This document shows positions 28,847 to 46,492 of a DNA stretch of 64,000 bases, in pieces. Source of the DNA: Deltaproteobacteria bacterium SG8_13 (GTDB lineage: Bacteria > Desulfobacterota > Desulfobacteria > Desulfobacterales > SG8-13); assembly GCA_001303025.1 (NCBI GenBank), contig LJNK01000001.1, positions 41-64,040 of the forward strand, read 5' to 3'. The stretch's first letter is position 1. Every line of letters starts with the position of its first letter. A model generated the notes under the pieces. The model worked only from the letters and a program-made list of their open reading frames with translations. It was not told where the DNA came from and did not search any database. Position numbers and translations under genes: made by a program.

Positions 28847-29844
28847 CCGACAGTTACGACGACACGCCCCGTTACCTTGCCGGCCAGTATCTGATCTATC
28901 AGAGGGTCGAGCGCCTCCAGATCGACCTGAGAAGACAGTCCTTCCAGATCGGCCGGTTTCCACTGCCCGGCGAGTTTTTGCCACACCGCTTGGCGAAGAT
29001 CCATGGGGCACTCCACCGAGTCGATGCCCAGCAGGCTGACGCCCCTGAGGATGAACGGGAAAACGGTCGTTGAAAGACTCGGAGAGGCCACCAGGCCACA
29101 GCACGTTGCGACACCCCCGTATTGCAGCGATTTCAGTGCGCTGGCAAGAATGTCGCCTCCAACCGTATCCACCACCCCTGCCCATCTTCCCTTCAGCATC
29201 GGCCGGCCACTGGTATCCGTTGCTTCTTCACGGCTGATGACTTCGGTTGCCCCGAGCTGATCGAGGAAGCTTTTCCGGTCGGTTTTTCCGCTGACGGCAA
29301 CCACCCGGAATCCAATTTTGGCCAGCACGGCGACGGCAACGCTGCCCACGCCGCCGGTTGCACCGGTCACCAGCACCTCACCGCGATCGGGCGTTACACC
29401 GCATTCCTGCAGTTTCCAAACAGAAAGCCCCGCGGTGAATCCGGCGGTTCCCAAGATCATGCTTTCCCGCAGGGATAGGCCGTCCGGCAGCCGCACGACC
29501 CAGTCGGCAGGGACACGGATATATTCGGCAAAGCCACCGGGCGTATTCATACCCAGATCATAACCGGTGACGACCACAGGGGCGCCGGCACGCAAACGAT
29601 CGGTGGCGCTGGCAGCGACCTCTCCGGCTGCATCGATGCCGGGAGTGTGCGGGAATTGGCGGGTGACACCCTTATTCCCGGTTGCCGACAGTGCGTCCTT
29701 GTAATTGAGCGACGAGTATTTTACCCGAATCAGGACCTCGCCGTCCGGCAATTCATCGATCGATCTTGTTCCGATGCGGCGAACAAATTTTTTGTCCGCC
29801 ACTTCTTCCACCACCATGGCCTTGAATTGTTCTGGAATTTCCAT
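28843..29844 (-). CDS. YhdH/AcuI-type MDR-family NADPH-dependent oxidoreductase (acrylyl-CoA reductase-like)
   Basis: The ATG at 29844 is preceded by GGAAGGGGGG. SSLNYKDALSATGNKGVTRQFPHTPGIDAAGEV and VLVTGATGGVGSVAV match the YhdH subfamily. Its 3' end overlaps the convergent gene by 4 nt. Confidence 0.85.
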   Translation of the reverse strand: MEIPEQFKAMVVEEVADKKFVRRIGTRSIDELPDGEVLIRVKYSSLNYKDALSATGNKGVTRQFPHTPGIDAAGEVAASATDRLRAGAPVVVTGYDLGMNTPGGFAEYIRVPADWVVRLPDGLSLRESMILGTAGFTAGLSVWKLQECGVTPDRGEVLVTGATGGVGSVAVAVLAKIGFRVVAVSGKTDRKSFLDQLGATEVISREEATDTSGRPMLKGRWAGVVDTVGGDILASALKSLQYGGVATCCGLVASPSLSTTVFPFILRGVSLLGIDSVECPMDLRQAVWQKLAGQWKPADLEGLSSQVDLEALDPLIDQILAGKVTGRVVVTVG

Positions 29845-30269
29845 GCGCCCCCCTTCCAGGATGTGTGTTCGGTTGGCTCTGTCGCCTGCGCCTGTCAGAA
29901 ACTTTGTCACCTAATACCGAAAGATCAGAAAAATCATGTTGCCACAATTCGTTGTGTGTTCTCCCCTGCAAATTCCTGTGATCATTGGCTGGGTGAAGAA
30001 TCAGCCGGTTCGATCGAAATCTGCCGGCCCGCCCGTTCCGCGGTGCCTGCGGCCGGTGTTCCGTCGCTTGCGGTGCGCGCATTGCATGGGGCCGGCTCCG
30101 CCCGATGCATTTTGTATCAACGAGCAAATGCCGCCCGTGCGGGCTATGTGCGGGGGACAAATTCCCGATCCTTGCTTATGCAAAACAGCATGTCGAACCG
30201 AATCTTTCAAGACTTTCTTTGCCCCCTGTTCGATTTACCGTTTACAGGGGAAAAGAATTGAAATATAAA

Positions 30270-30298
30270 TTGACATTGTAATACAATTTTAATACAAT
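30270..30298 (+). promoter_or_regulatory. Near-consensus sigma70 promoter (TTGACA-17-TACAAT) giving a leaderless or near-leaderless RHH-PilZ mRNA
   Basis: TTGACA lies at 30270-30275, followed by a 17-nt spacer and TACAAT at 30293-30298. Only 9 nt (tatcctgct, no SD) separate the -10 from the ATG at 30308. Confidence 0.5.
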
Positions 30299-30299
30299 T
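30279..30299. promoter_or_regulatory. Tandem direct repeat TAATACAATT x2 overlapping the promoter spacer and -10; candidate RHH operator
   Basis: Exact 10-bp copies lie at 30279-30288 and 30290-30299, an 11-bp period. RHH proteins typically bind short tandem or inverted repeats at their own promoters. The function is inferred. Confidence 0.35.
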
Positions 30300-30307
30300 A
30301 TCCTGCT

Positions 30308-30808
30308 ATGAAAAAAGACATCGTATACAGCATTCGGATGAGTCTGGTTGTCCGCGAAGCGTTGAAGAGGGCGGCCAAAAAGGAACGGCGGACAGTAGCG
30401 TCATTGCTCGACAAAATAATCCTCGACTACCTCGAAGAGCAACGCTACCTGCTCCCCCACGAGACCGGGTCCGACCGCAGGGGATTCCAGCGGCGCAAAA
30501 TAACGCTGCCGGCCTCCACTGTTGTCGTGGACGGAGATCCTTCCGAAATCTTTCCCTGCGTGATCACCGATATTGCCATGGGCGGTGTGTTCGTTACCTA
30601 TCCAAAGGGATCGAGGATCAAGGAAGTCTTCATGCGCGACCTGGACCGGTTTTTTCTCTCCTTCAAACTTCCCCAGACCGGCGAAGAGCTCCGCTTTGAC
30701 TGCGATGCCCGGCGCATGGTGGAAGTGGACGGGGAGATTCAGGTGGGCGCTATCCTCAACGAGCCGGACGAGCAAGACCTGGGCAAACTGAAATCGTACC
30801 TGATTTAG
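30308..30808 (+). CDS. Ribbon-helix-helix (CopG-like) DNA-binding domain fused to a PilZ (c-di-GMP receptor) domain
   Basis: The N-terminus IVYSIRMSLVVREALKRAAKKERRTVASLLDKIILDYLEE has a strand-helix-helix pattern. PilZ motifs follow: RRGFQRRK (RxxxR) and DIAMGG (a D-x-S/A-x-x-G variant). Confidence 0.65.
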   Translation: MKKDIVYSIRMSLVVREALKRAAKKERRTVASLLDKIILDYLEEQRYLLPHETGSDRRGFQRRKITLPASTVVVDGDPSEIFPCVITDIAMGGVFVTYPKGSRIKEVFMRDLDRFFLSFKLPQTGEELRFDCDARRMVEVDGEIQVGAILNEPDEQDLGKLKSYLI

Positions 30809-30831
30809 ACCAAATCCCCTGGAATGCGAAC

Positions 30832-30854
30832 GCTGCACTTGCGGCCCCGTTTTT
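30832..30854 (+). terminator. Weak candidate intrinsic terminator after the RHH-PilZ gene
   Basis: The structure is GCUGC-ACUU-GCGGC, a 5-bp stem including one G-U, followed by CCCGTTTTT. The stem is short, so this is low confidence. Confidence 0.25.
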
Positions 30855-31063
30855 CCATGGGTGATTTCATTGCCGCCGCCGCCGCAGATATCCGGCTATA
30901 CCCGCGATCCGTCCGATTGCGCCGGCTCTGTGCGGTTGCGATGGCAAAGCAGCAAAACCCTGATGGACAGATAATTAGCAGGCGCCCTGTCTGATGGATG
31001 CACGGAGCGAGCCACAAACTTCCGGCATCTTACCATTATACAGGGCCAAAGGAGGCTATGATC

Positions 31064-31669
31064 ATGAAAAGGCGTATGACAGCAACACTGGCGGTTATCA
31101 TTGCAATGACCTTTCTGATCGGATGTGTGACGACTTCGGGATCGAAGAGCGGCTCTGCATCCGGCTCCGGTGCCCCAAAAGCCGAGCCGGGCAGCTACAG
31201 CCAGGTACCGGCATCGCTGCGGGGTCCGGTGAAAGAAGCCGAGTTCGACCTGAGGCAGGCCAGTGAGGACATGAAACTTGCCGATGAAAAGGTCAAGCTG
31301 GCGGAGCTGCAGAAAGAATGGGCACTGCTCAACGACAAGAATGCCGGTTACGTGAAGAAACTGGCCGAAGTGCGGCGGGCCAAAGCCGAGATCGTCGTCG
31401 AAGTCAGAAAGGCCGAGGCCATCGACAATGCAGGCCTGGGCGACAAGGAAGAGAACATCAAGAACATTGCAAAACTGAGAACCAAAGAACTCGATATTTC
31501 CACTGACGAGATCAAGGTCCAGGCCGATATCGACACCACCGAACTGAGGCTCAAAAAGCTGGACAAGCAGATCCGAAGCCAGCAGGCAGCGGTGGCCAAA
31601 GCTGCCGGACACACCGGCAAAACAAACGCCAGCAGCAAAAAGTCGAAAAAAAGAGCGGCAAAAAAGTAA
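31064..31669 (+). CDS. Coiled-coil lipoprotein with a Lys-rich C-terminal tail, unknown function
   Basis: AAGGAGG lies 8 nt upstream of the ATG at 31064. MKRRMTATLAVIIAMTFLIGC is a signal peptide plus lipobox. The rest is heptad-like and K/E/A-rich, ending in SSKKSKKRAAKK. Confidence 0.6.
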   Translation: MKRRMTATLAVIIAMTFLIGCVTTSGSKSGSASGSGAPKAEPGSYSQVPASLRGPVKEAEFDLRQASEDMKLADEKVKLAELQKEWALLNDKNAGYVKKLAEVRRAKAEIVVEVRKAEAIDNAGLGDKEENIKNIAKLRTKELDISTDEIKVQADIDTTELRLKKLDKQIRSQQAAVAKAAGHTGKTNASSKKSKKRAAKK

Positions 31670-31699
31670 GCAAGAAGAAGTAACGCATTGGAGGAGATC

Positions 31700-32152
31700 A
31701 TGAAGAATTTTCGAGGATTTCTGAAACTGATTCTTGTCGGCCTGTCGCTGGTGGTGGCTGCTTGCTCTGCCAAGATTTATGGCAGTGTGCAGTTGGTAGA
31801 TCCAGAGATGAAGCCGATCGAAAGCGAAAGCGCCCAGGGCACGGTAATCAACATGATCAACACCACCGCCCAGGTCGAAAATGCATCGACTTCCGCCGTT
31901 GTTGACGAAAAGGGGAAGTTCGAATCCGCGAAAGAGTCGATCGTGCCGGGCACCTACAAGGTGGAGGCGGCCAGAATCGGGTTTGAAACGGAGACCGAGA
32001 CCGTGGAAATCAAGGGAAGCAGCAGTAAAAAAATCGAGTTCAAGCTCAAGAAGATCGAGGAAGGCAAGCGCCGAACCATCGAGAGTTCTTCGACCGACGC
32101 AGATAAGATCATCAATCCCGGTGAAGTCAACATTCGTCCGCCCGGCATGTAA
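31700..32152 (+). CDS. Small lipoprotein with a carboxypeptidase-regulatory-like (Ig-like beta-sandwich) domain
   Basis: GGAGGAG precedes the ATG at 31700. MKNFRGFLKLILVGLSLVVAAC contains a lipobox. GTYKVEAARIGFETETETVEI has a CarboxypepD_reg-like pattern. Confidence 0.6.
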   Translation: MKNFRGFLKLILVGLSLVVAACSAKIYGSVQLVDPEMKPIESESAQGTVINMINTTAQVENASTSAVVDEKGKFESAKESIVPGTYKVEAARIGFETETETVEIKGSSSKKIEFKLKKIEEGKRRTIESSSTDADKIINPGEVNIRPPGM

Positions 32153-32293
32153 TCTTCAGCCGGGCGCCCAAATACGGAATACGAGGCGAGCAGCCATCTT
32201 CTCAAGCGGGAGACCGGAGGTGGCGTGTCGGCGGCAGGCGACTGTGCGCCTGATGACAGACGTCTCAAACGAATCCGATTCTTTGGAGGTACC

Positions 32294-35002
32294 ATGATTG
32301 CCAACCGAGCCACCCGATGGGGTATAGCAATTGCCGCAGCGTTTTTCTTTTTAGCCTGTGAGGGGTCGAAAACGGTAGACCTGGAACTGGAGCTTACCGT
32401 CACCCTCGACGGCAAACCAGCTCCTGCGGCAAAAGTGTTAATCGATGGCACACACGTCGGCGCCACCGATGACAGCGGGCATTTTCTACAGAAACTCAGC
32501 AAGCTGCCGGGAACGGAAGTTCAAGTGGCCGTGGAAAAGGAGGCTGCCGGGTATCGTGTCGATCCCTGGAAAGACTCTTTCGTCACCAAACTGACCCAAC
32601 CGGGAACCATTGAACGGTACGGGTTCAAACCGGATCTGAGTGCCACCCGCTATTTTACCCTGTTGGTTACCGATGAGGGCGAGCCGGTCGAAGGCGCCGC
32701 GGTTCAGATTCAGGGCGAGCGGGTTTCCGAGACCGGGCAGGCCGGAGAATACGAGTACAGCTATCAACGGACTCCCGGCAAAGGGTTTGCGGTCAGTGTT
32801 TCCAAACCAGGCTATCTCGCCTGGCGAAAGACCGTCAGCGTCCAGCCCGGAGAACTGTACACGGTTGATCTGCAAAAGAAAGAAGCCAAACCGGCTCCGC
32901 AGGTGGCGGCAGTGGCCCCACCGGCGGAAAAAGAGCCGCCGGCACCGGTGAAGGCCGCCGCGCCTGCTCCGAAGGCAGCTCCGAAACCGAAGGCCCAGAG
33001 CACCACGCTGTATGTCGGCGCACTGACGGAAGCCTACGGCGTTACGCGTGCCGTACCCGGTGTATCGGTGGCTGCCGGCGGCACGGCGGTCGGCAAGACC
33101 AATGCCAAGGGGGCCCTCGTATACACTTACAAGGGACAGCCCGCCGAGACGGTAAACATCAAGCTGACCTCCCCCGGCCTCATACCGGCAGAATGGGAAA
33201 GCACCGTTCCACTGAGAAACAAACGGCGGGTTCAGCGTTATTTTTACCCGGTGAAACCGGATCCCATCCGCGTGGGGATTTACGGTTACGTCAACAACTC
33301 CCCCGACAAGGATCTCACCGATGTTATTGAGCGGGTGGAACTGACCATCGCCAACAACCTGTTCTCCTATGGCGGATTCCGGGAGGTGCCGAAGGACTCC
33401 CTGCAAGCCATGATGCGGCAGGCGAAGCTGGACATGGAGACGGTTTCCACCAAAGGCTGGATGACCACGCCGCTGATCAAAGCGGTGGACATGATCATTT
33501 ACGGCAGCGTCACCGCCGATGAAGTCGGCATGTCCATCGAAACCACCGTTACTACGGCCGACGGCACCATCATCTTGAGCCAGATCAACCCGGCCAGGAA
33601 AAAAGAAAACATTAAAAACACCGCCAAACTGATAGTCGGCGGCATTGTCGATCAGTTCCCATTCGAAGGCACCGTTTCGGAGGTGGCGCCCGAAGGCTGC
33701 CGCATCAATCTTGGCAAGGCCGATTTTCAGCTCCGACGCGGCAACGAGTTCCGCTATATGGTGGCGGATACCGATCGATCGGGCCGCCTGAAAGGGTATA
33801 AGGATGCCGGGTTGCTGCGGGTTATTCAAACCGACGACGCGTCATCGCTGCTGGAGGTCGTGGAACTGGCAGAAGGCACCCAGCTGAGCGTCGGTGATCG
33901 GGTGGTACGCCGAATCTATCTCGACGAACGAAGAGAAACCGAAAAGGCCACCGCCACTGTTTCGGTGACAGGCGGAATGCCGCCGGACAGCAGGCCCCTG
34001 TGGGGCGTAAATATCTATTTGAACAACACCTGGGTGGGTACCACCGGATCCAAGGGGTCGGTGAACATACCGGTGCGCCTTTATGAAGAACAGGATATCC
34101 TGCTCTCCCGCCACGGTTACCAGCAACTGCGTGACACCGTCAGCTTCGGTGAGAACAAGGAGGTCATGACATTTAGCCTCGATGTCGCCAGCGCGCTGTT
34201 CAAGGTGGAGTCGGAGCCATCCGGCGCCGAAGTCTCCATTGACGGGACGGTGATCGGCACCACGCCGATGATGAAAGGTGAGTTGGTCAATTTCGGATTC
34301 CGCAAGGTCAAACTGACCGTTGGCGGAGATTTCCGCGATTGGGAGCAGGTGATCGAATTCAACCAGCCCGAAGTGGACCGAACCGGCGGCCGTAAAATAG
34401 TGTTTCTGAAAGATTACATGAAGATCGGCAAACGGGCCGAAGCGCAGGGCAATATGGATGCTGCCATCACGGCATACGCCAGCACCGAAAGAGAGAACCC
34501 GGATTACTCGGAAGCGCGCTGCAGGCTTGCGCAATTGTACATGGACGAAAAAAACGACAGTGACGCCGCCATTCGGGAATTCGAAAGCGTGCTGTCGTTG
34601 CCCGAAAACCGGCAGATCATTTACAAGCAGTTTGCCGTGACATACACCAACTTGGGGCACGCATATTATGAAAAGGGCAACAGCCTGGTGCGCGACGACC
34701 AGCGGGCGGCTGCTCAACATTTTGCCTCGGCCCTGAAAAACCTGGGCATTGCCAAGCAGAACACACGCTTCTTCCCCACGGCCTATTACGACGAAGCTTT
34801 GCACGACACCTATTACTACACGGCGATTTCTTATCACAAGCTCTACCTGGTGACAAAGAAACGTTCGCTGATCGACAGAGCCGACCGGGCGTGGCAGGAG
34901 TATTTTGACTTTTACCCGGAATCCCTGGAGGGGAAAAGCAACTTCGTTGCAATGCGCAGCGGAGCTCAAAAATACTGGAGCCAGATAAAAGATCTGAAGT
35001 AG
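32294..35002 (+). CDS. Large (902 aa) multidomain lipoprotein: repeated CarboxypepD_reg/PEGA beta-sandwich domains, LpoB/CsgG-like domain, C-terminal TPR
   Basis: GGAGG precedes the ATG at 32294. The signal peptide and lipobox are AIAAAFFFLAC. A PAK-rich linker lies at about 32880-33000. IRVGIYGYVNNSPDKDLTDVIERVELTIANNLFSYGGFREVP resembles LpoB/CsgG. EPSGAEVSIDGTVIGTTP is a PEGA motif. GNMDAAITAYASTERENPDYSEARCRLAQLY is TPR-like. Confidence 0.65.
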   Translation: MIANRATRWGIAIAAAFFFLACEGSKTVDLELELTVTLDGKPAPAAKVLIDGTHVGATDDSGHFLQKLSKLPGTEVQVAVEKEAAGYRVDPWKDSFVTKLTQPGTIERYGFKPDLSATRYFTLLVTDEGEPVEGAAVQIQGERVSETGQAGEYEYSYQRTPGKGFAVSVSKPGYLAWRKTVSVQPGELYTVDLQKKEAKPAPQVAAVAPPAEKEPPAPVKAAAPAPKAAPKPKAQSTTLYVGALTEAYGVTRAVPGVSVAAGGTAVGKTNAKGALVYTYKGQPAETVNIKLTSPGLIPAEWESTVPLRNKRRVQRYFYPVKPDPIRVGIYGYVNNSPDKDLTDVIERVELTIANNLFSYGGFREVPKDSLQAMMRQAKLDMETVSTKGWMTTPLIKAVDMIIYGSVTADEVGMSIETTVTTADGTIILSQINPARKKENIKNTAKLIVGGIVDQFPFEGTVSEVAPEGCRINLGKADFQLRRGNEFRYMVADTDRSGRLKGYKDAGLLRVIQTDDASSLLEVVELAEGTQLSVGDRVVRRIYLDERRETEKATATVSVTGGMPPDSRPLWGVNIYLNNTWVGTTGSKGSVNIPVRLYEEQDILLSRHGYQQLRDTVSFGENKEVMTFSLDVASALFKVESEPSGAEVSIDGTVIGTTPMMKGELVNFGFRKVKLTVGGDFRDWEQVIEFNQPEVDRTGGRKIVFLKDYMKIGKRAEAQGNMDAAITAYASTERENPDYSEARCRLAQLYMDEKNDSDAAIREFESVLSLPENRQIIYKQFAVTYTNLGHAYYEKGNSLVRDDQRAAAQHFASALKNLGIAKQNTRFFPTAYYDEALHDTYYYTAISYHKLYLVTKKRSLIDRADRAWQEYFDFYPESLEGKSNFVAMRSGAQKYWSQIKDLK

Positions 35003-35017
35003 CGGAGGGAATCGGAG

Positions 35018-36616
35018 TTGGACCAGTGGAAGAAGTCTGCGCTCCTCGGCATCCTGTTTCTTTTGGCAATGGTGCCCGTCTCGGCTCGATGGGCTGCCGA
35101 AGGCGACCCCATCGTACCCAAGGATGAGCGGTTGACCGGGACGGCTGCTGTTCAGAATAAATTGCCCGGAGCGGCGGAGCAACCGGAAAATTCCGGTGTT
35201 GCTGGAGACCCGGCAGTGCCGACGCCGGGGCCTTCACAGGCGCCGGAAAATGCAGCTCCGGCCGAGAGTGCAACCGACAGCAGTGCATCGGAGGCGCCAG
35301 GCCAGCAGGCGACACCGGCTGCCGACCCGCAGCGCGACAGTCAGCCCCAGGATGCGCCTCGGGCCGGCACTCCGCCGGAAAAAGACCTGCAGTCGGAGGC
35401 CGGGATGCCGCCGGCGCCGGTCGCCGAGCCGGTGGACGGCGGCGAACCGGTGCAACAGCACGGTGAAGATCCGGTGGGCGTGGATGTCGGCGAAGTGACG
35501 GCTCCGCCGGCTGAGACAGTCCCGGTGCAGACACCCATTGAACCGGATTTCGTGCGTGCCCTTACCGATATCGCCGCAGGCCGCAATGACTCAAACCCGG
35601 TATGGTCCCCCTCCGGAGAGATGATCGCGTTTGAACGCAGCATTGGCGACAATCGTGAAATCATCGTCGCCCGCAGCAACGGTTCGATCATACAGCGTAT
35701 CCAGTGTCGGCCCACAGAAAAAAAAGATGAGATGGAGTTCTTTATGCCGGGAATCGTGGAAGAAACCAGCTACAATGCCGGCATCAGCTGGTCTCCGGAT
35801 GAAAACCGCCTGGTCTTTATGAGCAATGGCGGCAGCGGCAACTACGACCTTTATCTTCTCCCCGTTCTGGGGCAAGAGAAAACCATACGCCTGACGAAAA
35901 ACTCCGAGAAAGACAGCCATCCGCACTGGAGCCCGATTGACGAACGGCTGGCATTCGTTTCGGGTCGCACCGGCAAGGCCGAGGTTTATCTCATGGACCT
36001 GGCTTCGAGGCGGGTCAGTGTTGTAACCAATGGCACCAAAACCTACCTCTATCCGCAGTGGTCACCGGACGGAAGCAAGCTGGCACTGATATACGGCAGC
36101 AACGAAAACCACGACATATATCTGATTGAAGATCTGCGCAAGCCGGCCGAAACCCGGAAGGCGCTGACCACGTGGCAGTATGACGACCTGCGGCCAACCT
36201 GGTCGCCCGACGGCGGTAAGATCGCCTTTTACTCCAATTACAACCCTGCGGCGGACCCAAAAGTGTGGTCAATCATCGTGGTGGCTGCCGACGGCACGGA
36301 CCCGACCGACGGTGAGGAGCTGGCAGCTAAGGTCGTGGCGCACAATGTGGTTCCTGACGTAGAGCGGGGGCCGGCCTGGATGCCCGACAGCCGACGTATC
36401 GTTTTCGTGAAAAACGATCCGAAGGCCTACAACCCGATCTTTATAACCAATATCGGTGACCCCAGAGAAATGCCGCTTCGCACCGAAACGAAAATGAATC
36501 ACGATGTGGTTTGCTCGAAAACCGGGGTGCTGGCATTTCGATCCCAGACCGAGCAGTGGGATCACATCTACGTCGCAAAGCTGAAAAATGAAGTCGCAAA
36601 CCGGGAGCCGCAATGA
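35018..36616 (+). CDS. TolB-like periplasmic beta-propeller (PD40/WD40-like repeats) with a roughly 150-aa Pro/Ala/Glu-rich N-terminal region
   Basis: TTG start with GGAGGGA 7 nt upstream. The signal peptide is ALLGILFLLAMVPVSA. PD40 repeats are WSPSGEMIAFERS, SWSPDENRLVFMS, HWSPIDERLAFVS, QWSPDGSKLALIY and TWSPDGGKIAFYS. Confidence 0.75.
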   Translation: MDQWKKSALLGILFLLAMVPVSARWAAEGDPIVPKDERLTGTAAVQNKLPGAAEQPENSGVAGDPAVPTPGPSQAPENAAPAESATDSSASEAPGQQATPAADPQRDSQPQDAPRAGTPPEKDLQSEAGMPPAPVAEPVDGGEPVQQHGEDPVGVDVGEVTAPPAETVPVQTPIEPDFVRALTDIAAGRNDSNPVWSPSGEMIAFERSIGDNREIIVARSNGSIIQRIQCRPTEKKDEMEFFMPGIVEETSYNAGISWSPDENRLVFMSNGGSGNYDLYLLPVLGQEKTIRLTKNSEKDSHPHWSPIDERLAFVSGRTGKAEVYLMDLASRRVSVVTNGTKTYLYPQWSPDGSKLALIYGSNENHDIYLIEDLRKPAETRKALTTWQYDDLRPTWSPDGGKIAFYSNYNPAADPKVWSIIVVAADGTDPTDGEELAAKVVAHNVVPDVERGPAWMPDSRRIVFVKNDPKAYNPIFITNIGDPREMPLRTETKMNHDVVCSKTGVLAFRSQTEQWDHIYVAKLKNEVANREPQ

Positions 36617-38100
36617 AACGCGTTGCCATATTGCTGATATTCGTCCTGGCAGCCGGTGCTGCCCTGGCGGCCGAAGACAATCTGAACCGTGGCATGAAAT
36701 TTTACAAACAGCACCGCTACGATGATGCTTTCCAGCTGCTGCGCCGGGACCATTCGGAAGCGGCAGCCGGCAGCCGGCAGAAGCTGCAGTTGAGCCTCGG
36801 AATGGTCGCTCTGCGCTCCGCCGGTTTGTATCAGCAGCTCTACAGCCTTTCGTTGCGCATGAGCCTGGGTTATCTCACCCGGTTGATAGCCGACGAGCAG
36901 CAGCTGGACAGCCGGCTGGTCAAGCTCTATCTGGGAATGACCCTTCTTCAGACCGGTGAACTGACCGAGTCGACGGCCTTTCTGGCCAAGTTCGTCGACG
37001 ATAAAGGCGCTCTGGAGAAGGACCGGCAGCTTGCCGGCATCGATCTGGGTGCGGCCTATTACCTGCAGGGCAAAAAAGATCGGGCCGAAAAGTTCTGGTC
37101 CAAAATCAACGGCAATCCGAGCGATCCGTCCATCGTCACTTCCCTGGCATCGGTGTACAACCGCCTCGGCCTGGATGCGAAAGATCCCGTCGCACTGTGC
37201 AGCGGGGCTCTTGCGCAGCAGGCACCGGGAACGCAGCCCTCGATCCGCATGGTGTCGGACATCGTGGGAGTGTACGCCGGCCGCAGCCGGATCGATGAAA
37301 GCCTCGATTTGTTGCGGCAATCCGACCTGAGAAGCTATTTCCACGAGGAAATGTTGGTGGAAAACAAGGTGATTCGTTTTTACGATCCGATGCTGTTGCT
37401 GAATTTGTTTCACCTGTATGCCAGCGCTGCCGTTGCCTACCTGCAGGAGGCCGCCGGCGGGCCGGACGAAAAGCTGGCCGCCGCTGCAGGGACCTATCTC
37501 TGCGAAGGATACGAAATGACCGGTGCTGCAGATCAGTCGCAGCAGCTGGCGGAAAAACTGCTGGCCGAACCGAAATGGCCGGCCTGGATGAAAAACAGAC
37601 TAACCATCCGTCTGGCGACCGCGCAGTATCTGCTGGGTCAGAAAGAGACAGCCGAAAGCCAGTTCCAGCAGCTGCTGCAGTCGAAACCAGATCCGGATCT
37701 GGCGGCAGAACTGCTGATGGCCTGCTGCAACCATGGGATCGATTTCCCGCCGGCGGTCATCAGTGCAACCGAGCTGGCCCAGAAAGGAGAGGGCAAGGCG
37801 TTTGCCTCTTTGAATCACGCCCTGGGCCGGTATTACCTGTGGAAAAAAGATTACGTCAGGGCTGTGGTCCACATGGAGGCCGGGCGCGACAAGAGTAACA
37901 AGAACCGCATAGAATTCAACGACCCGCTGATGCTGATCCACCTGGCAGATGCATACTACTACTCGCGAAAATACTCGGAGGCCCTGGAGATCTTTTTCGA
38001 GATGAGCAAGCAGTTCCCGGCCGTTCGGCAGATACAGGTTGCCATTCAGGGAGTTTACTCGATGGAGCAGAAAAGCGCCGGCGATGCCAAGATCTTTTAA
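36613..38100 (+). CDS. Secreted TPR-like helical-repeat protein (495 aa)
   Basis: The ATG overlaps the preceding stop (ATGA). The signal peptide is MKRVAILLIFVLAAGAALAAE. Repeated helical hairpins such as GMKFYKQHRYDDAFQLL and ALGRYYLWKKDYVRAVVHME are TPR-like. Confidence 0.6.
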   Translation: MKRVAILLIFVLAAGAALAAEDNLNRGMKFYKQHRYDDAFQLLRRDHSEAAAGSRQKLQLSLGMVALRSAGLYQQLYSLSLRMSLGYLTRLIADEQQLDSRLVKLYLGMTLLQTGELTESTAFLAKFVDDKGALEKDRQLAGIDLGAAYYLQGKKDRAEKFWSKINGNPSDPSIVTSLASVYNRLGLDAKDPVALCSGALAQQAPGTQPSIRMVSDIVGVYAGRSRIDESLDLLRQSDLRSYFHEEMLVENKVIRFYDPMLLLNLFHLYASAAVAYLQEAAGGPDEKLAAAAGTYLCEGYEMTGAADQSQQLAEKLLAEPKWPAWMKNRLTIRLATAQYLLGQKETAESQFQQLLQSKPDPDLAAELLMACCNHGIDFPPAVISATELAQKGEGKAFASLNHALGRYYLWKKDYVRAVVHMEAGRDKSNKNRIEFNDPLMLIHLADAYYYSRKYSEALEIFFEMSKQFPAVRQIQVAIQGVYSMEQKSAGDAKIF

Positions 38101-38255
38101 GACCGCAATAAGGATTCCTGCATTCGGTGCACCGGCGCAGGAGCAAGCAGGTGTTTTCGATGAGGGGATGAGACGAAGTTTCGTTGTGACAAAACTCCAT
38201 ACTCCAAAACTTCAGCGGCAGCAAGCAGCTCTAGCCGCTATTTGAGGAGGATATC

Positions 38256-39872
38256 ATGAAAAGGTTGCCCATTGTAGTTACGATCTTTCTGATGATGTGT
38301 TGCCTCGCAGCCTCTCCGGCACTGGCCGGACAGCGCGGGGACCAGTTTCCAGACGGCGGTGCCCTGAACTACGGTGAATACGGACGCCCTGCAACCCTGG
38401 ATCCCATCACCAGCAACGATATGATCTCTTTGCGGATTACCGAACTGATCTTCAACGGTCTGGTCGGCATCGATGAAAAACAGGAGATCATTCCGGAGCT
38501 GGCCGAAAGATGGGAAATTGAAGAGGATGGTAAAAAGTACACCTTCTACCTGCGCCAGGACGTTGCCTGGCACCCGCGGGAAGGCGAGGATGCCAAGCCG
38601 TTCACGGCAGATGACGTGGTCTTTACCTACGACATTATGATGCACCCCCAGACCATCACGCCGTTGAAAGTCCGGTATGAGTTTATCGAAAGCGTCACCA
38701 AGGTGGACGATTTCACCGTGACCTTCACCTTGAAGCGGCCGATCCTGAACGCGCTGGCCAAATTCAGCTTCAAAGTGATCCCACGCCACGGGCTGCAAAA
38801 TCAGGAATTTCTGACCCGGGAGGATCCGTTCGTCCAGGCTCCGATCGGCACCGGGCCTTACATGCTAAAAAACATCACCGCCGATCGTGAAGTGATCCTG
38901 GTGTCCAACGAGAACTATTTTAAAGGGCGGCCGCACATCGACAAGTATATCGCGCGGCCCTTTGCCGACCAGAACATTATGGGCCAGGCCCTGATGTTCA
39001 ACGCCATCGACATGATCGTGCTGGTGAACCACCGCGATATTCCCCAGCTTCAGGGAGATAAGCGCTTTGTCATGCAGCCCTACAACGCGCTTTCTTATTC
39101 GTTTTTTGGGTTCAACTTGCGCAATCCGCTGCTGGTCGACAAAAGGGTTCGCAAGGCCTTTACCTACGCGATCAACCGCCAGGAGATGCTCGACTCCTTT
39201 TTCAACAGCCAGGGAACCATTATTTCCGGACCGTTCGCACCGGGCAGCTGGGCCTACAATCTTGACGTTCAGCCGGTGCCCTACGATCCCCAGAAGGCCG
39301 AAGAGCTGCTTACCGAGGCCGGTTTCACCAAAAACGGTGACGGAATTATGGAAAAGGACGGGCGCAAGCTGTCGTTGAACCTCAAGGTGCCGATAGCCAA
39401 AGAAAGCGAAGCCGTCAAGCGCGTCGTGCTGGCTTTCAAGAACTATCTTCAGAAAGTCGGTGTCGACATCCAGCCCGAATTTCAGGAATGGATGGCGTGG
39501 AAAGAAGATATCTTTCTGCATCATGATTACGATCTGATGTACGCCTCCTGGGTCTTTGACGATTCGGCCGATATTTCTTCCCTGTTTCATTCCGCCGAGA
39601 TCGGATCCTGGAAAAACAACTTCGGCGCCTTCTCCAATCCGGAAGTCGACGGATTGATCGTCGAGGCCAAACTGACTCTCGATCATGAAAAACGAAGGAC
39701 CATCAACCGCAAACTGCACGAAAAAATTGCCGATGAAAATCCCTACACGTTTCTGTGGACCCTGACCAACTATGCCGGCTACAACAAAAAGCTCCGGAAA
39801 GTGGCCATTCATCCATACAAGTTCTTCTCCTTTGCAGATGAATGGTACATTCCCAAGTCGGAGCAGCGCTAA
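38256..39872 (+). CDS. ABC transporter substrate-binding protein, family 5 (peptide/nickel, OppA/DppA-like)
   Basis: There is a signal peptide. LDPITSNDMISLRITELIFNGLV and WHPREGEDAKPFTADDVVFTY match the SBP_bac_5 pattern. GAGGAGG precedes the ATG. Confidence 0.9.
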   Translation: MKRLPIVVTIFLMMCCLAASPALAGQRGDQFPDGGALNYGEYGRPATLDPITSNDMISLRITELIFNGLVGIDEKQEIIPELAERWEIEEDGKKYTFYLRQDVAWHPREGEDAKPFTADDVVFTYDIMMHPQTITPLKVRYEFIESVTKVDDFTVTFTLKRPILNALAKFSFKVIPRHGLQNQEFLTREDPFVQAPIGTGPYMLKNITADREVILVSNENYFKGRPHIDKYIARPFADQNIMGQALMFNAIDMIVLVNHRDIPQLQGDKRFVMQPYNALSYSFFGFNLRNPLLVDKRVRKAFTYAINRQEMLDSFFNSQGTIISGPFAPGSWAYNLDVQPVPYDPQKAEELLTEAGFTKNGDGIMEKDGRKLSLNLKVPIAKESEAVKRVVLAFKNYLQKVGVDIQPEFQEWMAWKEDIFLHHDYDLMYASWVFDDSADISSLFHSAEIGSWKNNFGAFSNPEVDGLIVEAKLTLDHEKRRTINRKLHEKIADENPYTFLWTLTNYAGYNKKLRKVAIHPYKFFSFADEWYIPKSEQR

Positions 39873-39954
39873 ATAAGGACGCGGGCAATCTTTTCACTCC
39901 AGCCGCAGGGGGCCCGGAACGGGCACCCTGCGGCTGCTCAAATCCAATAAACGG

Positions 39955-40902
39955 ATGAAACTTTCTGCCGTACGACCCATCACCGTTCTGGTTACCCGGG
40001 AACTGGGCATCGCCGCTCTTTTGCTGCTGGGCGTCAGTTTTGTCGTGTTCGTCATTTTGTACTTGTCTCCCGGAAATCCATTCGCCACGCTGGTCACCCG
40101 GATAGAGACCGCAGCCGATCCCGGCGCGGCTGCAGCGGCGCCGGCAACCTGGTACGGCCAGTATTTCACCTGGCTGAAAAACCTGTTCAAAGGCAACCTC
40201 GGCAATTCCATCCGCACCGGACTGCCGGTGCTGCAGGAGGTCGTGCGGGTCGGGATCAACACCCTGTATCTTACCATCGGCTCTTTGCTGGTTACGCTGC
40301 TGATCGCCGTGCCGATCGCCGTTTTTTCCGCCAGACGCGGGATGACCCCAACCAGCTGGTCGATGACGGTTTTTACCTATGTCGTGTCGGCCCTGCCGGT
40401 TTTCTGGCTGGGGTACATCGTCATTTACATATCCATTCACCGGTTCGGGCTCTTTCCCCTGGCTTTTGGCTCCAGCGCCGGCCCGTGGAACTGGTTTTAC
40501 TTCCTGCTTCCGGTTCTGGTGCTGGGCATCAGCAACGGCACCATCAGTGAGGTCGTTCGCTACCTGCGCGAGGAGATGAAGCGGGTTTTTGCCGAGGAAT
40601 ACATCGTCACTGCCCGCGCCAAAGGGGCCTCTGTGTGGAAACATTCCTTCAAGGAGGGATTTCTGATTCCCATCACCGAGATCATCGCCGCCAAGATACC
40701 TTTCATCCTGGGCGGTGCGGTGGTGGTCGAGCAGGTGTTCAACTGGCCCGGAATGGGGCGCATGGCCTGGCAGGCCGCTCAGGATCGGGATTATCCGTTG
40801 ATTATGGGCATCACGCTGGTTGCCGCCATCATCGTTCGGATGGGCAGCCTGATGCAGCGGGTGGTGCACATTATCGTCAACCCGCGGGCATCCAAGGAAT
40901 AA
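39955..40902 (+). CDS. ABC transporter permease (DppB/OppB-like)
   Basis: BPD_transp_1-type permease of 315 aa. It has an N-terminal LSPGNPF motif and an EAA-like loop (EEYIVTARAKGAS). Confidence 0.9.
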   Translation: MKLSAVRPITVLVTRELGIAALLLLGVSFVVFVILYLSPGNPFATLVTRIETAADPGAAAAAPATWYGQYFTWLKNLFKGNLGNSIRTGLPVLQEVVRVGINTLYLTIGSLLVTLLIAVPIAVFSARRGMTPTSWSMTVFTYVVSALPVFWLGYIVIYISIHRFGLFPLAFGSSAGPWNWFYFLLPVLVLGISNGTISEVVRYLREEMKRVFAEEYIVTARAKGASVWKHSFKEGFLIPITEIIAAKIPFILGGAVVVEQVFNWPGMGRMAWQAAQDRDYPLIMGITLVAAIIVRMGSLMQRVVHIIVNPRASKE

Positions 40903-40924
40903 TTTTGGATCAAAGATTTACATT

Positions 40925-41818
40925 ATGAGACGATTCTCCCAGTACGCTTTTGAAATAAGCGACGTTTCCCATGTGTCGTTCTGGAAAAAGGCCGGACCGA
41001 TGGACCGGGTGTACATCGGTTACGGGCTGCTGGTGGTGCTGCTGGTGGTTATATCCTATTTGCTGGGGGCGACCGGCGCTCTGCCGTACGATCCCCAGGA
41101 GATCAACCTGGAGCTGATTATGGCACCGCCCAACACCGGCGGGCATCTGCTGGGCACCGATTTCATGGGGCGGGATATGCTCTCGCGGCTGATCATTTCA
41201 ATTCAGGCATATTTTCTTCCGGGACTGCTGGCCATCGGGATCGCCATTGTTTTCGGAACCTGCTTCGGTGTTTTTGCCGGCTACTGGGGAGGGGCGCTGG
41301 AGACGGCCACCACGTACGTCAGCAACCTGTTGAATTCCTTTCCCCGCCTGGTGCTGATCCTGTTGATGGTCGCCGCTTTCAAGCCGGACATCTACTACAT
41401 CATGATCATCGTCGGGGTCACCAACATCCCGGTGGTGGCTTCGCTGATTCACAGCAAGATTCAATTTTTGAAACAGAAGAACTTTATCGAAGCGGCCACG
41501 GCGCTCGGTTTGAACAACTGTACCATCATTTTCAAGCATATCCTCTGGCACAACTGCCGGTCGGTGCTGATCATACAGGCAACTTTGGGGATGGCCGAAG
41601 CCATTTTGATGGAAACCAGCCTGAGCTACCTCGGCTTCGGCGTGCAGGAGCCCACTCCCTCCTGGGGCAACATGGTGCAGGCCGGCTCCAATTACTTCAT
41701 GCAGGGCAAGTTCTGGCCCTCGACCGCACCCGCCCTGGCGATTTTGTTCGCCATCATGGGATTTCATCTGCTCGGCGACGGATTGAACAGCATGCTCGAA
41801 AGGAAAGGGGATCGATGA
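40925..41818 (+). CDS. ABC transporter permease (DppC/OppC-like)
   Basis: HLLGTDFMGRDMLSRLI and FIEAATALGL are typical of the OppC/DppC family. The start is uncertain, because an internal M at MDRVYIGYG is also possible. Confidence 0.88.
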   Translation: MRRFSQYAFEISDVSHVSFWKKAGPMDRVYIGYGLLVVLLVVISYLLGATGALPYDPQEINLELIMAPPNTGGHLLGTDFMGRDMLSRLIISIQAYFLPGLLAIGIAIVFGTCFGVFAGYWGGALETATTYVSNLLNSFPRLVLILLMVAAFKPDIYYIMIIVGVTNIPVVASLIHSKIQFLKQKNFIEAATALGLNNCTIIFKHILWHNCRSVLIIQATLGMAEAILMETSLSYLGFGVQEPTPSWGNMVQAGSNYFMQGKFWPSTAPALAILFAIMGFHLLGDGLNSMLERKGDR

Positions 41819-42915
41819 CCGACGGGCCGGTACTGAAAATCGAGAACCTTTACACCTACTTTTACACCCGCAGCCGGCAGGCCTTCATCCGCAGCGTCGA
41901 CGGGGTCCACCTGGAGATCGAAAAGGGCCAAACGCTGGGGATTGTGGGCGAAAGCGGCAGCGGAAAGAGCGTAACCGCCCTGTCGGTGATGGGGCTGGTG
42001 ACCGCCGAACCGGGCGTAATCAGCGGCAAAGTCGGCCTGAAAACCGCCAACGTTCAAAAAAACCTTCTCCAGGACCTGTCCGAGTATGTAAAGACGGCCA
42101 CCATAACCGGCCGAATCATGGACGTCTACAAGGACAACCGGCGCTGGCAGAAAAACGTCGATCGGGTGATGCGCGGGATCCGCGGCCGGGAGATATCGAT
42201 GATCTTCCAGAACCCCAAGCTTTCGATGAACCCGTTCACCAGCGTCGGAAGACAGATCCAGGAATCGATCCTGCTCAACACCGCGGTGCGCAGTGCTGCT
42301 GAAGCCAGGGACCGGGCATTGTACTGGCTGGAGAAAGTGAGAATCGACTCGCCCCGGCTGCGCTACGACAACAACCCCTACGGTCTTTCTGGCGGAATGT
42401 GCCAGCGGGCGATGATCGCCATGGCACTTTCCTCCGAGCCCTCCCTGCTGATTGCCGATGAACCCACAACCGGACTGGATGCCACGATTCAGTCGAAAAT
42501 CGTCGAGCTGCTGCAGGAAATCAAAACCACGGTGGGGGTAACCACCATGCTCATCAGCCACGATATCGACGTGATCCGCGCCCTGTCGGATCAGGTGGCT
42601 GTCATGTACGGCGGCACTATCCTCGAGCACGGCCCGGCCGATGCGATTCTCTCCGGTGCAATGGCCCAGAGCCATCCGTATACGGCGGCGCTGATGGCCT
42701 CGATTCCCAACCGGGAGCAGATCAGAACAAAGGCCTATCTGCAGGCCATCAAGGGGGAGGTGCTCGACACGATCAACCTGCCCGAAGGTTGCCGTTTTTA
42801 TCCGCGCTGCGAGCAGGTGACGGATCGGATTCAGGAGCATTGCCGGCTGCGGGAGCCGGGGCTGCTTTCGATATCCAACGGCCACAGGATTCGCTGCTGG
42901 CGATACCAGCAATAA
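41815..42915 (+). CDS. ABC transporter ATP-binding protein (DppD/OppD-like)
   Basis: Motifs present are Walker A GESGSGKS, the signature LSGGMCQR, Walker [10 protein letters not shown] and a C-terminal oligopeptide-transporter Cys motif (CRFYPRC). Its start overlaps the preceding stop. Confidence 0.92.
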
Positions 42916-42948
42916 AGTCACATTGCACTTAGAGGGTGACCGCAACAG

Positions 42949-43968
42949 ATGACCACGGCTAAAACCATACTGGAAGTTCAAAACCTGAAAAAATACTACT
43001 CATCCTCCAAGGGCCTGTTTACTTCCCTGCGCAAAACCACAAACTTCATCCCGGCCGTGGATGATGTCAGTTTCTATATCAAGGAAAATGAAACCATGGG
43101 GCTGGTGGGTGAGACCGGCTGTGGAAAGACCACGATCGGGAAAACCGTTTTAAAGCTGACACCGCCGACGGCCGGGCGGATTCTTTACGACGGCAAGGAC
43201 ATCACCGGATTGTCGCAGGCCGGTTTCCGCCCGTATCGGAAGCAGATGCAAATGATATTCCAGGACCTGGATGCGGCCCTGAACCCGAAGATGCGCATCC
43301 GGTCCATTTTGAAAGAAGCCCTCACCGTGCATGAAAGGCCCAGTGATGCGCAGGTCGACCGCCGCATCGCAGAGCTGCTGGAGATGGTGAATCTGAAAAA
43401 AGGAAAGCTCAACAACTTTCCCGGGGAGCTTTCCGGCGGCGAGAAACGCCGGGTGGGCATTGCCCGTTCGCTGGCCGTCGACCCCCGGTTTGTGGTGGCC
43501 GACGAGCCCACCAGCGCCCTGGATGTGTCGATCCAGGCCCAGGTGGTCAACCTCCTGCGCGATTTGCAGCAGCGGCTGAAGCTGTCTTATCTGTTCATCT
43601 CCCACGACCTGCGGGTGGTGGAGCTGATCAGTCACAAGGTGGCGGTCATGTACCTGGGACAGATCGTCGAGATGGGCATGGCTGGCAAGATAGCCAGCGC
43701 TCCGCGGCACCCGTATACGGCCGTGCTCTGGTCGTCACTGGTGGACAAGACCACCGGCGAGGGCAAAAGCGTGGTCAGCGATCTCGAGGGCCAGCACTGG
43801 GGGGTTTTCGACTTCGAACGCCCCACCACCGGATGCCGGTTCGCCCCCCGCTGTCCGGTTTACGAGGTCAAAGGACGCCCGCCGTTTTGCACCAACCCGG
43901 GCACACCGCCCGAGCTGCACAGGGTCGGCGAAGCGCACATGGTGCGTTGCCACTACCCTTTGCAGTAA
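42949..43968 (+). CDS. ABC transporter ATP-binding protein (DppF/OppF-like)
   Basis: Motifs present are Walker A GETGCGKTT, the signature LSGGEKRR, Walker B FVVADEPTSALD and a C-terminal CRFAPRCP. Confidence 0.92.
   Translation: MTTAKTILEVQNLKKYYSSSKGLFTSLRKTTNFIPAVDDVSFYIKENETMGLVGETGCGKTTIGKTVLKLTPPTAGRILYDGKDITGLSQAGFRPYRKQMQMIFQDLDAALNPKMRIRSILKEALTVHERPSDAQVDRRIAELLEMVNLKKGKLNNFPGELSGGEKRRVGIARSLAVDPRFVVADEPTSALDVSIQAQVVNLLRDLQQRLKLSYLFISHDLRVVELISHKVAVMYLGQIVEMGMAGKIASAPRHPYTAVLWSSLVDKTTGEGKSVVSDLEGQHWGVFDFERPTTGCRFAPRCPVYEVKGRPPFCTNPGTPPELHRVGEAHMVRCHYPLQ

Positions 43969-44923: not shown

Positions 44924-46492
<1,569 letters not shown>

Follow-up and report, generated by a model that had tools for sequence, protein, structure and literature searches.

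A conserved predicted operon of envelope proteins and an ABC importer, with putative cyclic-dinucleotide control, in Desulfobacterales and other bacteria

What task could unite a run of exported lipoproteins, a β-propeller and a tetratricopeptide repeat (TPR) protein that are encoded one after another beside a putative PilZ-type regulator? The question is raised by a stretch of 64,000 nucleotides from the genome of Deltaproteobacteria bacterium SG8_13 (Desulfobacterales; contig LJNK01000001.1), here called the window, whose numbering applies to the whole 64-kb stretch and from whose open reading frames (ORFs) the six-gene calls and coordinates were taken. A sequence-only reading had described six same-strand genes between 30270 and 38100, all of which are present where it placed them, and had seen in them an envelope module without a motor, reminiscent of the periplasmic half of Tol-Pal and perhaps linked to cyclic di-GMP (c-di-GMP). 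The comparative analysis presented here points to a larger unit. The genes for four exported proteins, namely a small Ig-like lipoprotein (Ig), a 902-aa lipoprotein with PEGA and TPR domains (PEGA), a PD40 β-propeller and a TPR protein, are followed by those of an ATP-binding cassette (ABC) importer, and related loci in several lineages carry a riboswitch of a cyclic-dinucleotide class upstream. The best-supported reading of these sequences is an operon, predicted to be under dinucleotide control, in which a dedicated envelope module would be coupled to a binding-protein-dependent ABC importer.

Related loci were gathered from two directions. For the forward search, 31 members of the 902-aa lipoprotein family were aligned and one genome per species was then scanned, yielding 110 confirmed matches, of which 80 genome loci were kept. 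These are labelled Desulfobacterales, Nitrospirota, Rokubacteria, Acidiferrobacterales, Sulfurifustaceae, Nitrosomonadales/Gallionellaceae, Geobacteraceae/Desulfuromonadales and, in one case, Gemmatimonadota; all are metagenome-assembled genomes (MAGs), whose labels may be wrong. In the reverse search the substrate-binding protein (SBP) of the importer was compared with metagenome contigs, giving 80 further loci and a total of 160. Gene content was assessed with phmmer, using the window proteins against the ORFs of each locus, and the counts from the reverse search are expressed over the loci with enough flank. The order Ig-PEGA-PD40-TPR-SBP-permease-permease-ATPase-ATPase is kept among the genome loci wherever the contig is long enough, and its first five genes stand in the same order in essentially all of the 160 loci with enough flank. 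The genome loci contain the Ig lipoprotein in 69/80, the PD40 protein in 79/80 and the TPR protein in 72/80 cases. On the SBP side the corresponding metagenome figures are 65/65 for TPR, 50/50 for PD40, 40/40 for PEGA and 37/37 for Ig, together with 66/67 and 59/60 for permeases B and C and 52/53 and 46/47 for the two ATPases. The unit thus defined comprises nine genes in the window, at 31688-43968, and no further gene in the flanks of the genome loci is conserved across lineages.

The importer itself is readily recognised. The window products were searched against Pfam, with listing at E ≤ 0.1, and scored with the NCBIfam equivalog models; the five importer genes all exceed their Pfam cut-offs (282 bits for the SBP, 78.8 and 63.6 for the permeases, 83.8+51.2 and 110.7+40.5 for the ATPases), and together display the architecture of the PepT family, i.e., SBP_bac_5, two BPD_transp_1 and two ABC_tran proteins with oligo_HPY. 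Such an Opp/Dpp/Nik-type importer follows the TPR gene in 65/65 SBP-side loci and in every genome locus with enough downstream sequence. The right boundary formerly set at 38100 is therefore misplaced, as the conserved cluster continues through the SBP, two permeases and two ATPases to 43968, and the description of a module with neither motor nor enzymes fails with it. Across related loci the gap between the TPR and SBP genes (median 87 nt) is similar to that between the SBP and permease genes (75 nt), and the second permease gene and the first ATPase gene overlap by 4 nt in almost every locus; a terminator scan found none on the + strand in the TPR-SBP gap of the window.

Conservation is unevenly spread over the unit. 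Median identities to the window protein across phyla are highest for the SBP (76%, range 69-85%), followed by permease C (71%), permease B (66%) and the ATPases (64-67%), and then by the Ig lipoprotein (61%), the PD40 protein (57%), the PEGA lipoprotein (47%) and the TPR protein (41%). The high cross-phylum identity implies that the whole operon has been transferred horizontally. The four exported proteins and the importer form one conserved predicted operon, to which an extra coiled-coil gene at 31064 is joined in the window. Four of the five exported genes of the original cluster are thus syntenic across genomes, the coiled-coil lipoprotein being restricted to loci of the Desulfobacterales type. 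The literature searched gave no name and no paper for the combination of PEGA, TolB-like and ABC importer proteins, and the earlier view of the cluster as an unnamed but conserved envelope system is borne out.

Evidence for cyclic-dinucleotide control comes from RNA elements upstream of the orthologous operons. In six of the 16 loci scanned (L022, L023, L030, L031, L035 and L038), an element directly upstream of the Ig gene scores above the gathering threshold of RF01051 (c-di-GMP-I/GEMM-I), with 44-53 bits against 35. A covariance model, R1, built from these upstream RNAs and run on the 160 loci produced 24 strong matches of 92-152 bits, equal to 24/103 of the loci with at least 450 nt upstream, all of them on the operon strand and 63-272 nt before the Ig start. 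The carriers are mostly Nitrospirota, along with Geobacteraceae, Desulfuromonadales, one betaproteobacterium and four metagenome contigs. The proposed helices are well maintained, 94% of cells being paired compared with at most 39% when the partners are slid, and double changes occur in 11 pairs, where shuffling gives a mean of 6.0. The 3' aptamer strand GCCGCCAAAG doubles as the 5' half of a hairpin closed by CTTTGGCGG and a U-run. Since this strand is shared by aptamer and terminator, ligand binding should prevent termination, and the element is predicted to be a ligand-ON terminator switch. Two individual loci may be noted: in L032 (Nitrospirota) the riboswitch is not matched in full before the Ig gene (start ~9260-9320), and a sequence GGGTCGAGCCGCCAAAGACG, which matches the 3' half of the aptamer, is kept there and may represent a degraded or divergent riboswitch; L130 contains a second, weak R1 match (30 bits, 2369-2473) some 750 nt upstream of the Ig gene, perhaps a divergent copy or an element of another gene.

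The residue that governs ligand choice in this class was also inspected. Position 11 of the Rfam model, a G equivalent to G20 of Vc2, is an A in the L023 RNA, and the A20-type string CAGAGCAA occurs in 23/24 strong R1 matches. A20 defines the cyclic GMP-AMP (cGAMP)-type GEMM-Ib class, and the substitution A20G switches specificity to c-di-GMP; by this residue the riboswitches of the orthologous operons would be assigned to the cGAMP-type GEMM-Ib class. They share with the Geobacter GEMM-Ib elements the match to RF01051, the A at the G20 equivalent and the terminator-type ON design, and two of the riboswitch loci are Geobacteraceae or Desulfuromonadales MAGs. The genes described as GEMM-Ib-regulated in G. 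sulfurreducens are cytochromes, pili and lipoprotein transpeptidases, whereas the words "ABC" and "transporter" are absent from the Geobacter GEMM-Ib papers searched. A further difference is that most riboswitch loci here are Nitrospirota and one is betaproteobacterial. A literature search combining c-di-GMP riboswitch, ABC transporter and Nitrospira returned general genome papers only. As a further pointer to dinucleotide signalling, a receiver-GGDEF gene lies within 5 kb in nine loci.

The window belongs to a lineage with other means of control. It has no Rfam match at gathering score anywhere, none at E ≤ 10 in 29800-32400 and none to R1, and a riboswitch in the window itself was rejected on these results. 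Its cluster is preceded by a gene for an RHH-PilZ protein, whose PilZ match (PF07238, 28.9 bits) exceeds the cut-off of 22.5 and whose RHH_5 match (22.3 bits) falls below that of 26. Orthologues stand directly upstream of the cluster in L001, L003, L007, L037, L092 and L093, i.e., in seven loci including the window, and the PilZ gene consequently does not co-occur with the cluster at large. The RRxxxR motif of PilZ is kept in these proteins (RRGFQR in the window), and DxSxxG is represented by DI[AG]MGG (DIAMGG in the window), with the Ser replaced in all seven. The strong promoter claimed for this gene was confirmed (Table 1). Its spacer and -10 element are overlapped by a tandem TAATACAATT repeat at 30279-30299, present in two exact copies and nowhere else in the window, and a related arrangement, TTGACA..GTAWTAC..ATAC, is conserved upstream of the PilZ orthologues in L003, L007, L037 and L093. 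The repeat could be an autoregulatory RHH operator. It does not recur between the PilZ gene and the next gene, either in the window or in the six orthologous loci, and an RHH operator upstream of the operon was rejected on that account. The transcript leader of the RHH-PilZ gene is predicted to be only ~10 nt long. The RHH-PilZ protein, putatively responsive to a cyclic dinucleotide, is a candidate substitute regulator in this riboswitch-less lineage.

A third type of control is suggested by sigma-54-like boxes (TGGCA-N6-YTGCW), which precede the first gene in 17 of 100 loci, none of which has a riboswitch, where about one would be expected by chance (background ~0.024 per kb). The box reads TGGCAAATTTGTTGCA in L041, L048, L050, L051, L119 and L120, and the further loci are L010, L012, L016, L020, L049, L057, L099, L102, L103, L128 and L151. 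This distribution points to control of the operon by an enhancer-binding protein in Rokubacteria and in part of the Desulfobacteraceae. Alignments of the riboswitch-less lineages revealed no conserved RNA, the sigma-54-like box being found instead, and the window has no such promoter.

Among the envelope proteins, a structure was predicted for the 902-aa lipoprotein. Its family has 199 representatives at E ≤ 1e-30, in two tiers, in a profile search of 1.84 billion representative proteins, and its start at 32294 is consistent with the homologues. Pfam detects PEGA (55.7 bits), CarbopepD_reg_2 (43.5 bits) and TPR. An AlphaFold model built on the family alignment (mean pLDDT 78.4) displays three N-terminal, Ig-like β-sandwiches, an α/β domain (~325-455), a β-barrel (~458-540), more sandwiches including PEGA, and a helical TPR-like C-terminal domain at 708-902, which holds the densest run of invariant residues in the 31-member alignment. 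The top Foldseek matches in the PDB are the LPHT ring 8z5n (E 3.6e-10, 331 columns) and FlgT 3w1e (E 1.2e-9, 334 columns, covering 334 of 356 FlgT residues), followed after the FlgT entries by TolB 7mx5 (E 2.6e-6); the FlgT likeness is one of fold only, with a target-normalised TM score of 0.28-0.30 and a large root-mean-square deviation. Located in the periplasm beneath the outer membrane, FlgT assembles into a ring of 26 subunits, and the FlgT-like core, by analogy, may oligomerise into a ring as well. The best structural match of the centre of the protein is thus to the Vibrio H ring, over ~330 of FlgT's 352-356 residues, the differences being that the present one, a lipoprotein, has additional Ig, PEGA and TPR domains and is devoid of a FlgT signal at the sequence level. 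No FlgT family was listed for the window products by Pfam at E ≤ 0.1, the family profile retrieved only TPR proteins from the PDB sequences (no FlgT, CsgG or LpoB), and the conserved unit has no flagellar genes in the related loci. The sequence-only reading was right about the sandwiches and the TPR region of this protein. Its LpoB/CsgG-like domain was not recovered: CsgG (PF03783) and LpoB (PF13036) are unlisted for any product at E ≤ 0.1, neither appears in the top 50 Foldseek PDB matches, and the predicted α/β domain resembles FlgT and the N-terminal domain of TolB instead.

As to the other exported products, the translations show the three lipoboxes, the signal-peptide-like N-termini of PD40 and TPR proteins, the Lys-rich tail of the coiled-coil protein and the Pro/Ala/Glu-rich linker of the propeller. 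That linker, of ~150 aa (35100-35570, residues ~30-185), is specific to Desulfobacterales-type PD40 proteins; homologues in other phyla measure ~400-440 aa and are without it. The propeller matches PD40 (101.4 bits) and DPPIV_N (56.1 bits), the TPR protein matches TPR_2, TPR_1 and TPR_14 (45.7, 29.5 and 28.8 bits), and the small Ig-like lipoprotein reaches 28.5 bits for CarboxypepD_reg, below the Pfam cut-off. Of the earlier domain calls, PilZ, PEGA, CarbopepD_reg_2, PD40 and TPR are thereby upheld by Pfam, and RHH_5 and the CarboxypepD_reg of the small lipoprotein are below threshold. The coiled-coil lipoprotein has no Pfam match; among the 160 loci it has homologues in 30, all of the Desulfobacterales type and none labelled outside Desulfobacterota (some are unlabelled metagenome contigs), with a Lys/Arg-rich tail in 30/30 and a C-terminal Lys in 21/30. 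The tight packing of the six front genes holds with respect to strand and to the ATGA overlap of the PD40 and TPR genes, the gaps being 255, 18, 141 and 15 nt, so that the former count of four out of five gaps at 13-141 nt was slightly off.

These components recall Tol-Pal in that the genes of a PD40 propeller, a TPR protein and outer-membrane lipoproteins lie together, and in that part of the 902-aa lipoprotein was aligned to TolB by Foldseek. Membership in that system, as a Tol-Pal-like module, was not sustained. The TolB equivalog TIGR02800 gives the propeller 132.2 bits against a cut-off of 343.15, over the propeller only (query 249-421, model 233-396), the YbgF/CpoB model TIGR02795 gives the TPR protein 17.7 bits against 90.1, and Pfam finds no OmpA-like domain in any of the three lipoproteins. 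The propeller protein is without the N-terminal domain of TolB, no OmpA-like Pal is encoded, and the window cluster has as neighbours the genes of an ABC transporter, an oxidoreductase and a DUF4388 protein, with no TolQ-TolR-TolA; energy would be supplied here by ABC ATPases as opposed to a proton-driven stator. Tol-Pal, CsgG/LpoB and curli were all rejected as homes for the cluster, their profile hidden Markov model (HMM) scores being far below cut-offs or absent. PorE of Type IX secretion (T9SS) reportedly joins TPR, β-propeller and carboxypeptidase-regulatory-like domains in one periplasmic lipoprotein. The same domain set is spread here over several proteins, and the likeness is one of domain vocabulary only: the TPR protein gives a weak T9SS_PorE match (E 0.0019, 16.6 bits, cut-off 600), and the cluster has no OmpA_C domain and no other T9SS genes.

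The SBP, which in the window is 100% identical to AMJ54_00160 of Deltaproteobacteria bacterium SG8_13, deserves separate consideration, being the most conserved component of the unit. In PepT systems it is as a rule the binding protein that varies most, and since the opposite holds here, we infer that this SBP has more constrained surfaces than a cargo carrier would need. Its closest solved relative is AppA (1xoc, 217 bits, against at most 104 for E. coli NikA), and several other solved relatives are NikA-type or NikZ-type proteins. In the alignment to E. coli DppA, the invariant D435 corresponds to D408, which we take to bind the peptide α-amino group, and V378 corresponds to R355, presumably the clamp for the dipeptide carboxylate. 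This pair of residues fits a longer, peptide-like ligand with a free amino group. A peptide-like ligand is suggested with moderate confidence, and its identity as a cell-wall peptide with low confidence. No substrate equivalog of NCBIfam is reached by the SBP (Opp4A 217 bits against 650, NikA 170 against 393, DppA 152 against 1005), and the best models of the permeases, Opp2B and Opp4C, remain below their equivalog cut-offs. The importer as a whole shares its five-component architecture and Pfam families with AppA-F of B. subtilis, DppA-F of E. coli and MppA-OppBCDF, AppA being the closest solved SBP and the Asp aligned with DppA D408 being conserved. It departs from them in that no substrate equivalog is reached, the SBP varies less than any other component, genes for four dedicated exported proteins always precede those of the importer and many of the operons are under a cyclic-dinucleotide riboswitch. 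We know of no described PepT system with such an accessory envelope module.

A second form of the cluster was encountered when the contexts of six weaker-tier PEGA-family proteins were examined; its taxon was taken from a single name, "PEGA domain-containing protein [Bdellovibrionota bacterium]". The order of genes is a membrane protein (~340 aa), an SH3_3 protein, the Ig homologue, the PEGA homologue, PD40, SBP_bac_5 and PilZ, and identities to the window proteins are 29% for Ig (E 1.6e-16), 24% for PEGA (E 2e-82), 37% for PD40 and 51% for the full-length SBP. In two independent loci (L161, and L163-L165, which form one assembly group) a YkuD L,D-transpeptidase gene opens the cluster, and the PilZ protein that closes it has the canonical motifs RKAKR and DISLSG. 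Because this form keeps the Ig, PEGA, PD40 and SBP proteins and not the TPR protein, permeases or ATPases, the former four would constitute the invariant core of the system. The SBP is 51-76% identical across phyla and is kept in the absence of a transporter, which suggests a role beyond the delivery of cargo. The predicted link to cyclic dinucleotides recurs in three unrelated forms, namely the riboswitch, the RHH-PilZ protein and the Bdellovibrionota PilZ protein. The c-di-GMP link first proposed is upheld to this extent, by the GEMM-I riboswitches of 24 orthologous operons and by the latter PilZ, control by the RHH-PilZ protein of the window remaining inferential. The SH3_3 and YkuD proteins, together with the Lpp-like coiled-coil lipoprotein and its terminal Lys, hint at peptidoglycan. 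In L166, L167, L168 and the context of P0304, the second form is divergent from genes for heptosyltransferase-like (Glyco_transf_9), Kdo-transferase-like (Glycos_transf_N) and RNase G proteins, and therefore adjoins lipopolysaccharide core genes. A homologue search with the Bdellovibrionota PEGA protein as query returned only itself.

Taken as a whole, the sequences are best accommodated by an envelope scaffold that is induced by a cyclic dinucleotide and supplies an ABC importer with a peptide-like ligand, a reading to which we assign a probability of roughly 0.55. The operon would be transcribed when a cyclic dinucleotide (3',3'-cGAMP and/or c-di-GMP) rises. The lipoproteins would anchor a scaffold beneath the outer membrane, where the FlgT-like core may form a ring in the manner of FlgT, and this scaffold would hold the propeller and the TPR protein. 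It would capture a small ligand bearing a free amino group (probably a peptide, perhaps a stem peptide of the cell wall), or present it, to the unusually constrained SBP, which would dock on the permeases for import driven by ATP hydrolysis. In the lineage of the window, which has no riboswitch, the adjacent RHH-PilZ protein would be the candidate substitute for the RNA switch.

Several observations weigh against this reading. All 160 loci come from MAGs or metagenomes. Natural A20 variants of the riboswitch can accept c-di-GMP as well as cGAMP; the window itself is without a riboswitch, its PilZ domain lacks the canonical Ser, and the TAATACAATT repeat is missing in front of the operon. The cluster encodes no outer-membrane channel, the resemblance to FlgT is confined to the fold, and the nickel-type NCBIfam models score about as well as the peptide-type ones. 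In the Bdellovibrionota contexts examined, neither permease nor ATPase genes are adjacent and there is no TPR gene; because the SBP is kept there without an adjacent transporter, it may act otherwise than in transporter delivery, import being secondary.

In a bolder reading, tentative and in our estimate somewhat unlikely, the four-protein core is a new cyclic-dinucleotide-controlled envelope machine, with a ring-like scaffold beneath the outer membrane, the SBP as its ligand-recognising subunit (perhaps for peptidoglycan stem peptides) and outputs that differ by phylum. In Desulfobacterota, Nitrospirota, Rokubacteria and Proteobacteria the output would be an ABC importer, in Bdellovibrionota a set of PilZ, SH3 and L,D-transpeptidase proteins.

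The main rival to the scaffold-fed importer, close to the envelope-remodelling idea of the sequence-only reading, holds that the core is a periplasmic scaffold or sensor in which the SBP is structural or senses ligands such as stem peptides in place, and that the transporter is a lineage-specific addition. The Bdellovibrionota form speaks for it, as it retains exactly Ig, PEGA, PD40 and the 51%-identical full-length SBP with no adjacent transporter and adds SH3_3, a membrane protein, PilZ and sometimes YkuD; the SBP is moreover better conserved than the permeases on which it should dock, and the coiled-coil lipoprotein of the Desulfobacterales has an Lpp-like basic tail, often with a C-terminal Lys. 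A dispensable transporter is nevertheless hard to square with its presence after the TPR gene in 65/65 SBP-side loci and with the 64-71% identity of its permeases and ATPases. Bdellovibrionota could, in addition, use permeases encoded elsewhere, and Pfam finds no peptidoglycan-binding domain (OmpA_C, LysM or SH3) in the window cluster. This rival is considered unlikely.

Less probable still is the uptake of a metal or metallophore of the nickel/cobalt type, with the envelope proteins gathering a metal chelate beneath the outer membrane. The parity of the nickel models (Opp2B/Opp2C, NikA, NikB/C) with the peptide models would agree with it, as would the NikA-type and NikZ-type proteins among the solved SBP relatives and the host lineages, which, going by record titles, are common in metal-rich sediments and groundwater. 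The oligopeptide binder AppA is nonetheless the closest solved relative, at 217 bits against at most 104 for E. coli NikA, the Asp equivalent to DppA D408 is invariant, and flank and Rfam scans associated no TonB-dependent receptor, metal-responsive regulator or NiCo riboswitch with the operon. Metal homeostasis is, to our knowledge, not usually under cyclic-dinucleotide control.

A secretion or assembly apparatus for a surface polymer (adhesin, amyloid or exopolysaccharide), with the large lipoprotein as a CsgG-like pore, is very improbable. Cyclic-dinucleotide control and TPR or lipoprotein components are common in matrix-secretion systems, and the α/β domain of the large lipoprotein had been likened to CsgG/LpoB, a likeness which neither the HMMs nor the top 50 Foldseek matches support; the cluster lacks a glycosyltransferase, a gene for a secreted substrate and a β-barrel, and its permeases are of the importer type BPD_transp_1. 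Finally, the chance adjacency of an envelope cluster and an ordinary peptide transporter, as two operons with no relation to each other, which might be read from the 155-nt TPR-SBP gap of the window and a weak promoter-like match (9/12, 37886-37915), was rejected on synteny, since the order is invariant in 65/65 loci of several phyla while other neighbours differ, the SBP stays with the envelope genes even without the transporter, and the 41-76% span of identities between components disfavours one recently spread mobile island.

Known outputs of dinucleotide signalling are mostly motility, pili, matrix and cytochromes, and an ABC importer with a dedicated envelope module would represent a new one. 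The range of A20-type GEMM-I riboswitches, known mainly from Geobacter, would be extended to Nitrospirota and Betaproteobacteria, and the operon would, if the reading of its core as a new envelope machine is true, be the first defined GEMM-Ib effector operon outside the Geobacter exoelectrogenesis regulon. The related loci derive from MAGs of sediment, soil and groundwater bacteria of several phyla, with no literature found, and their occurrence in MAGs and metagenomes only may explain the lack of study. The features of the window are collected in Table 1.

Table 1. Positions of the cluster, importer and promoter features in the window
Feature	Position	Strand	Remarks
Sigma-70-like promoter of RHH-PilZ gene	30270..30298	+	TTGACA-17-TACAAT, 11/12 positions
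RHH-PilZ protein, 166 aa	30308..30808	+	PilZ Pfam match; lineage-specific neighbour
Coiled-coil lipoprotein, basic C-terminal tail	31064..31669	+	Lipobox LIGC; accessory gene
Small Ig-like (CarboxypepD_reg-type) lipoprotein	31688..32152	+	Lipobox VAAC; first gene of cross-phylum unit
902-aa PEGA/TPR lipoprotein	32294..35002	+	Lipobox FLAC; Pfam PEGA, CarbopepD_reg_2, TPR
PD40 β-propeller, predicted secreted	35018..36616	+	PD40, DPPIV_N matches
495-aa TPR protein, predicted secreted	36613..38100	+	TPR_2, TPR_1, TPR_14 matches
Family-5 SBP	38256..39872	+	SBP_bac_5, 282 bits
Opp/Dpp/Nik-type permease, first	39955..40902	+	BPD_transp_1
Opp/Dpp/Nik-type permease, second	40925..41818	+	BPD_transp_1
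OppD/OppF-type ABC ATPase, first	41815..42915	+	ABC_tran + oligo_HPY
OppD/OppF-type ABC ATPase, second	42949..43968	+	ABC_tran + oligo_HPY

Some further features of the locus may be mentioned. An anti-phage defence system was rejected, as PADLOC gave no match among the seven products tested. The first ATPase (41815-42915), of the OppD type, matches its family models in two stretches, with ~35 extra residues between the Walker A and Q-loop regions (residues ~60-105), and carries Cys-rich motifs (CRFYPRC...C) at its C-terminus, reminiscent of the Fe-S-binding tails reported for certain OppD/F proteins. Beyond the operon, the opposite strand carries genes for a small secreted Glu/Pro-rich protein (44271-44741, -) and for a product that is arylsulfatase-like by eye (44924-47134, -), neither of which is conserved in related loci. 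Upstream, at 26405-28846 (+), an 813-aa protein is encoded in which DUF4388 (PATAN-like, 30.5 bits) is combined with a membrane segment and an extended helical stretch, and whose C-terminus is an Lcl_C/DUF1566 domain (48.4 bits). Its gene is also found upstream of the cluster in L003, L007 and L037, in the sub-lineage with RHH-PilZ.

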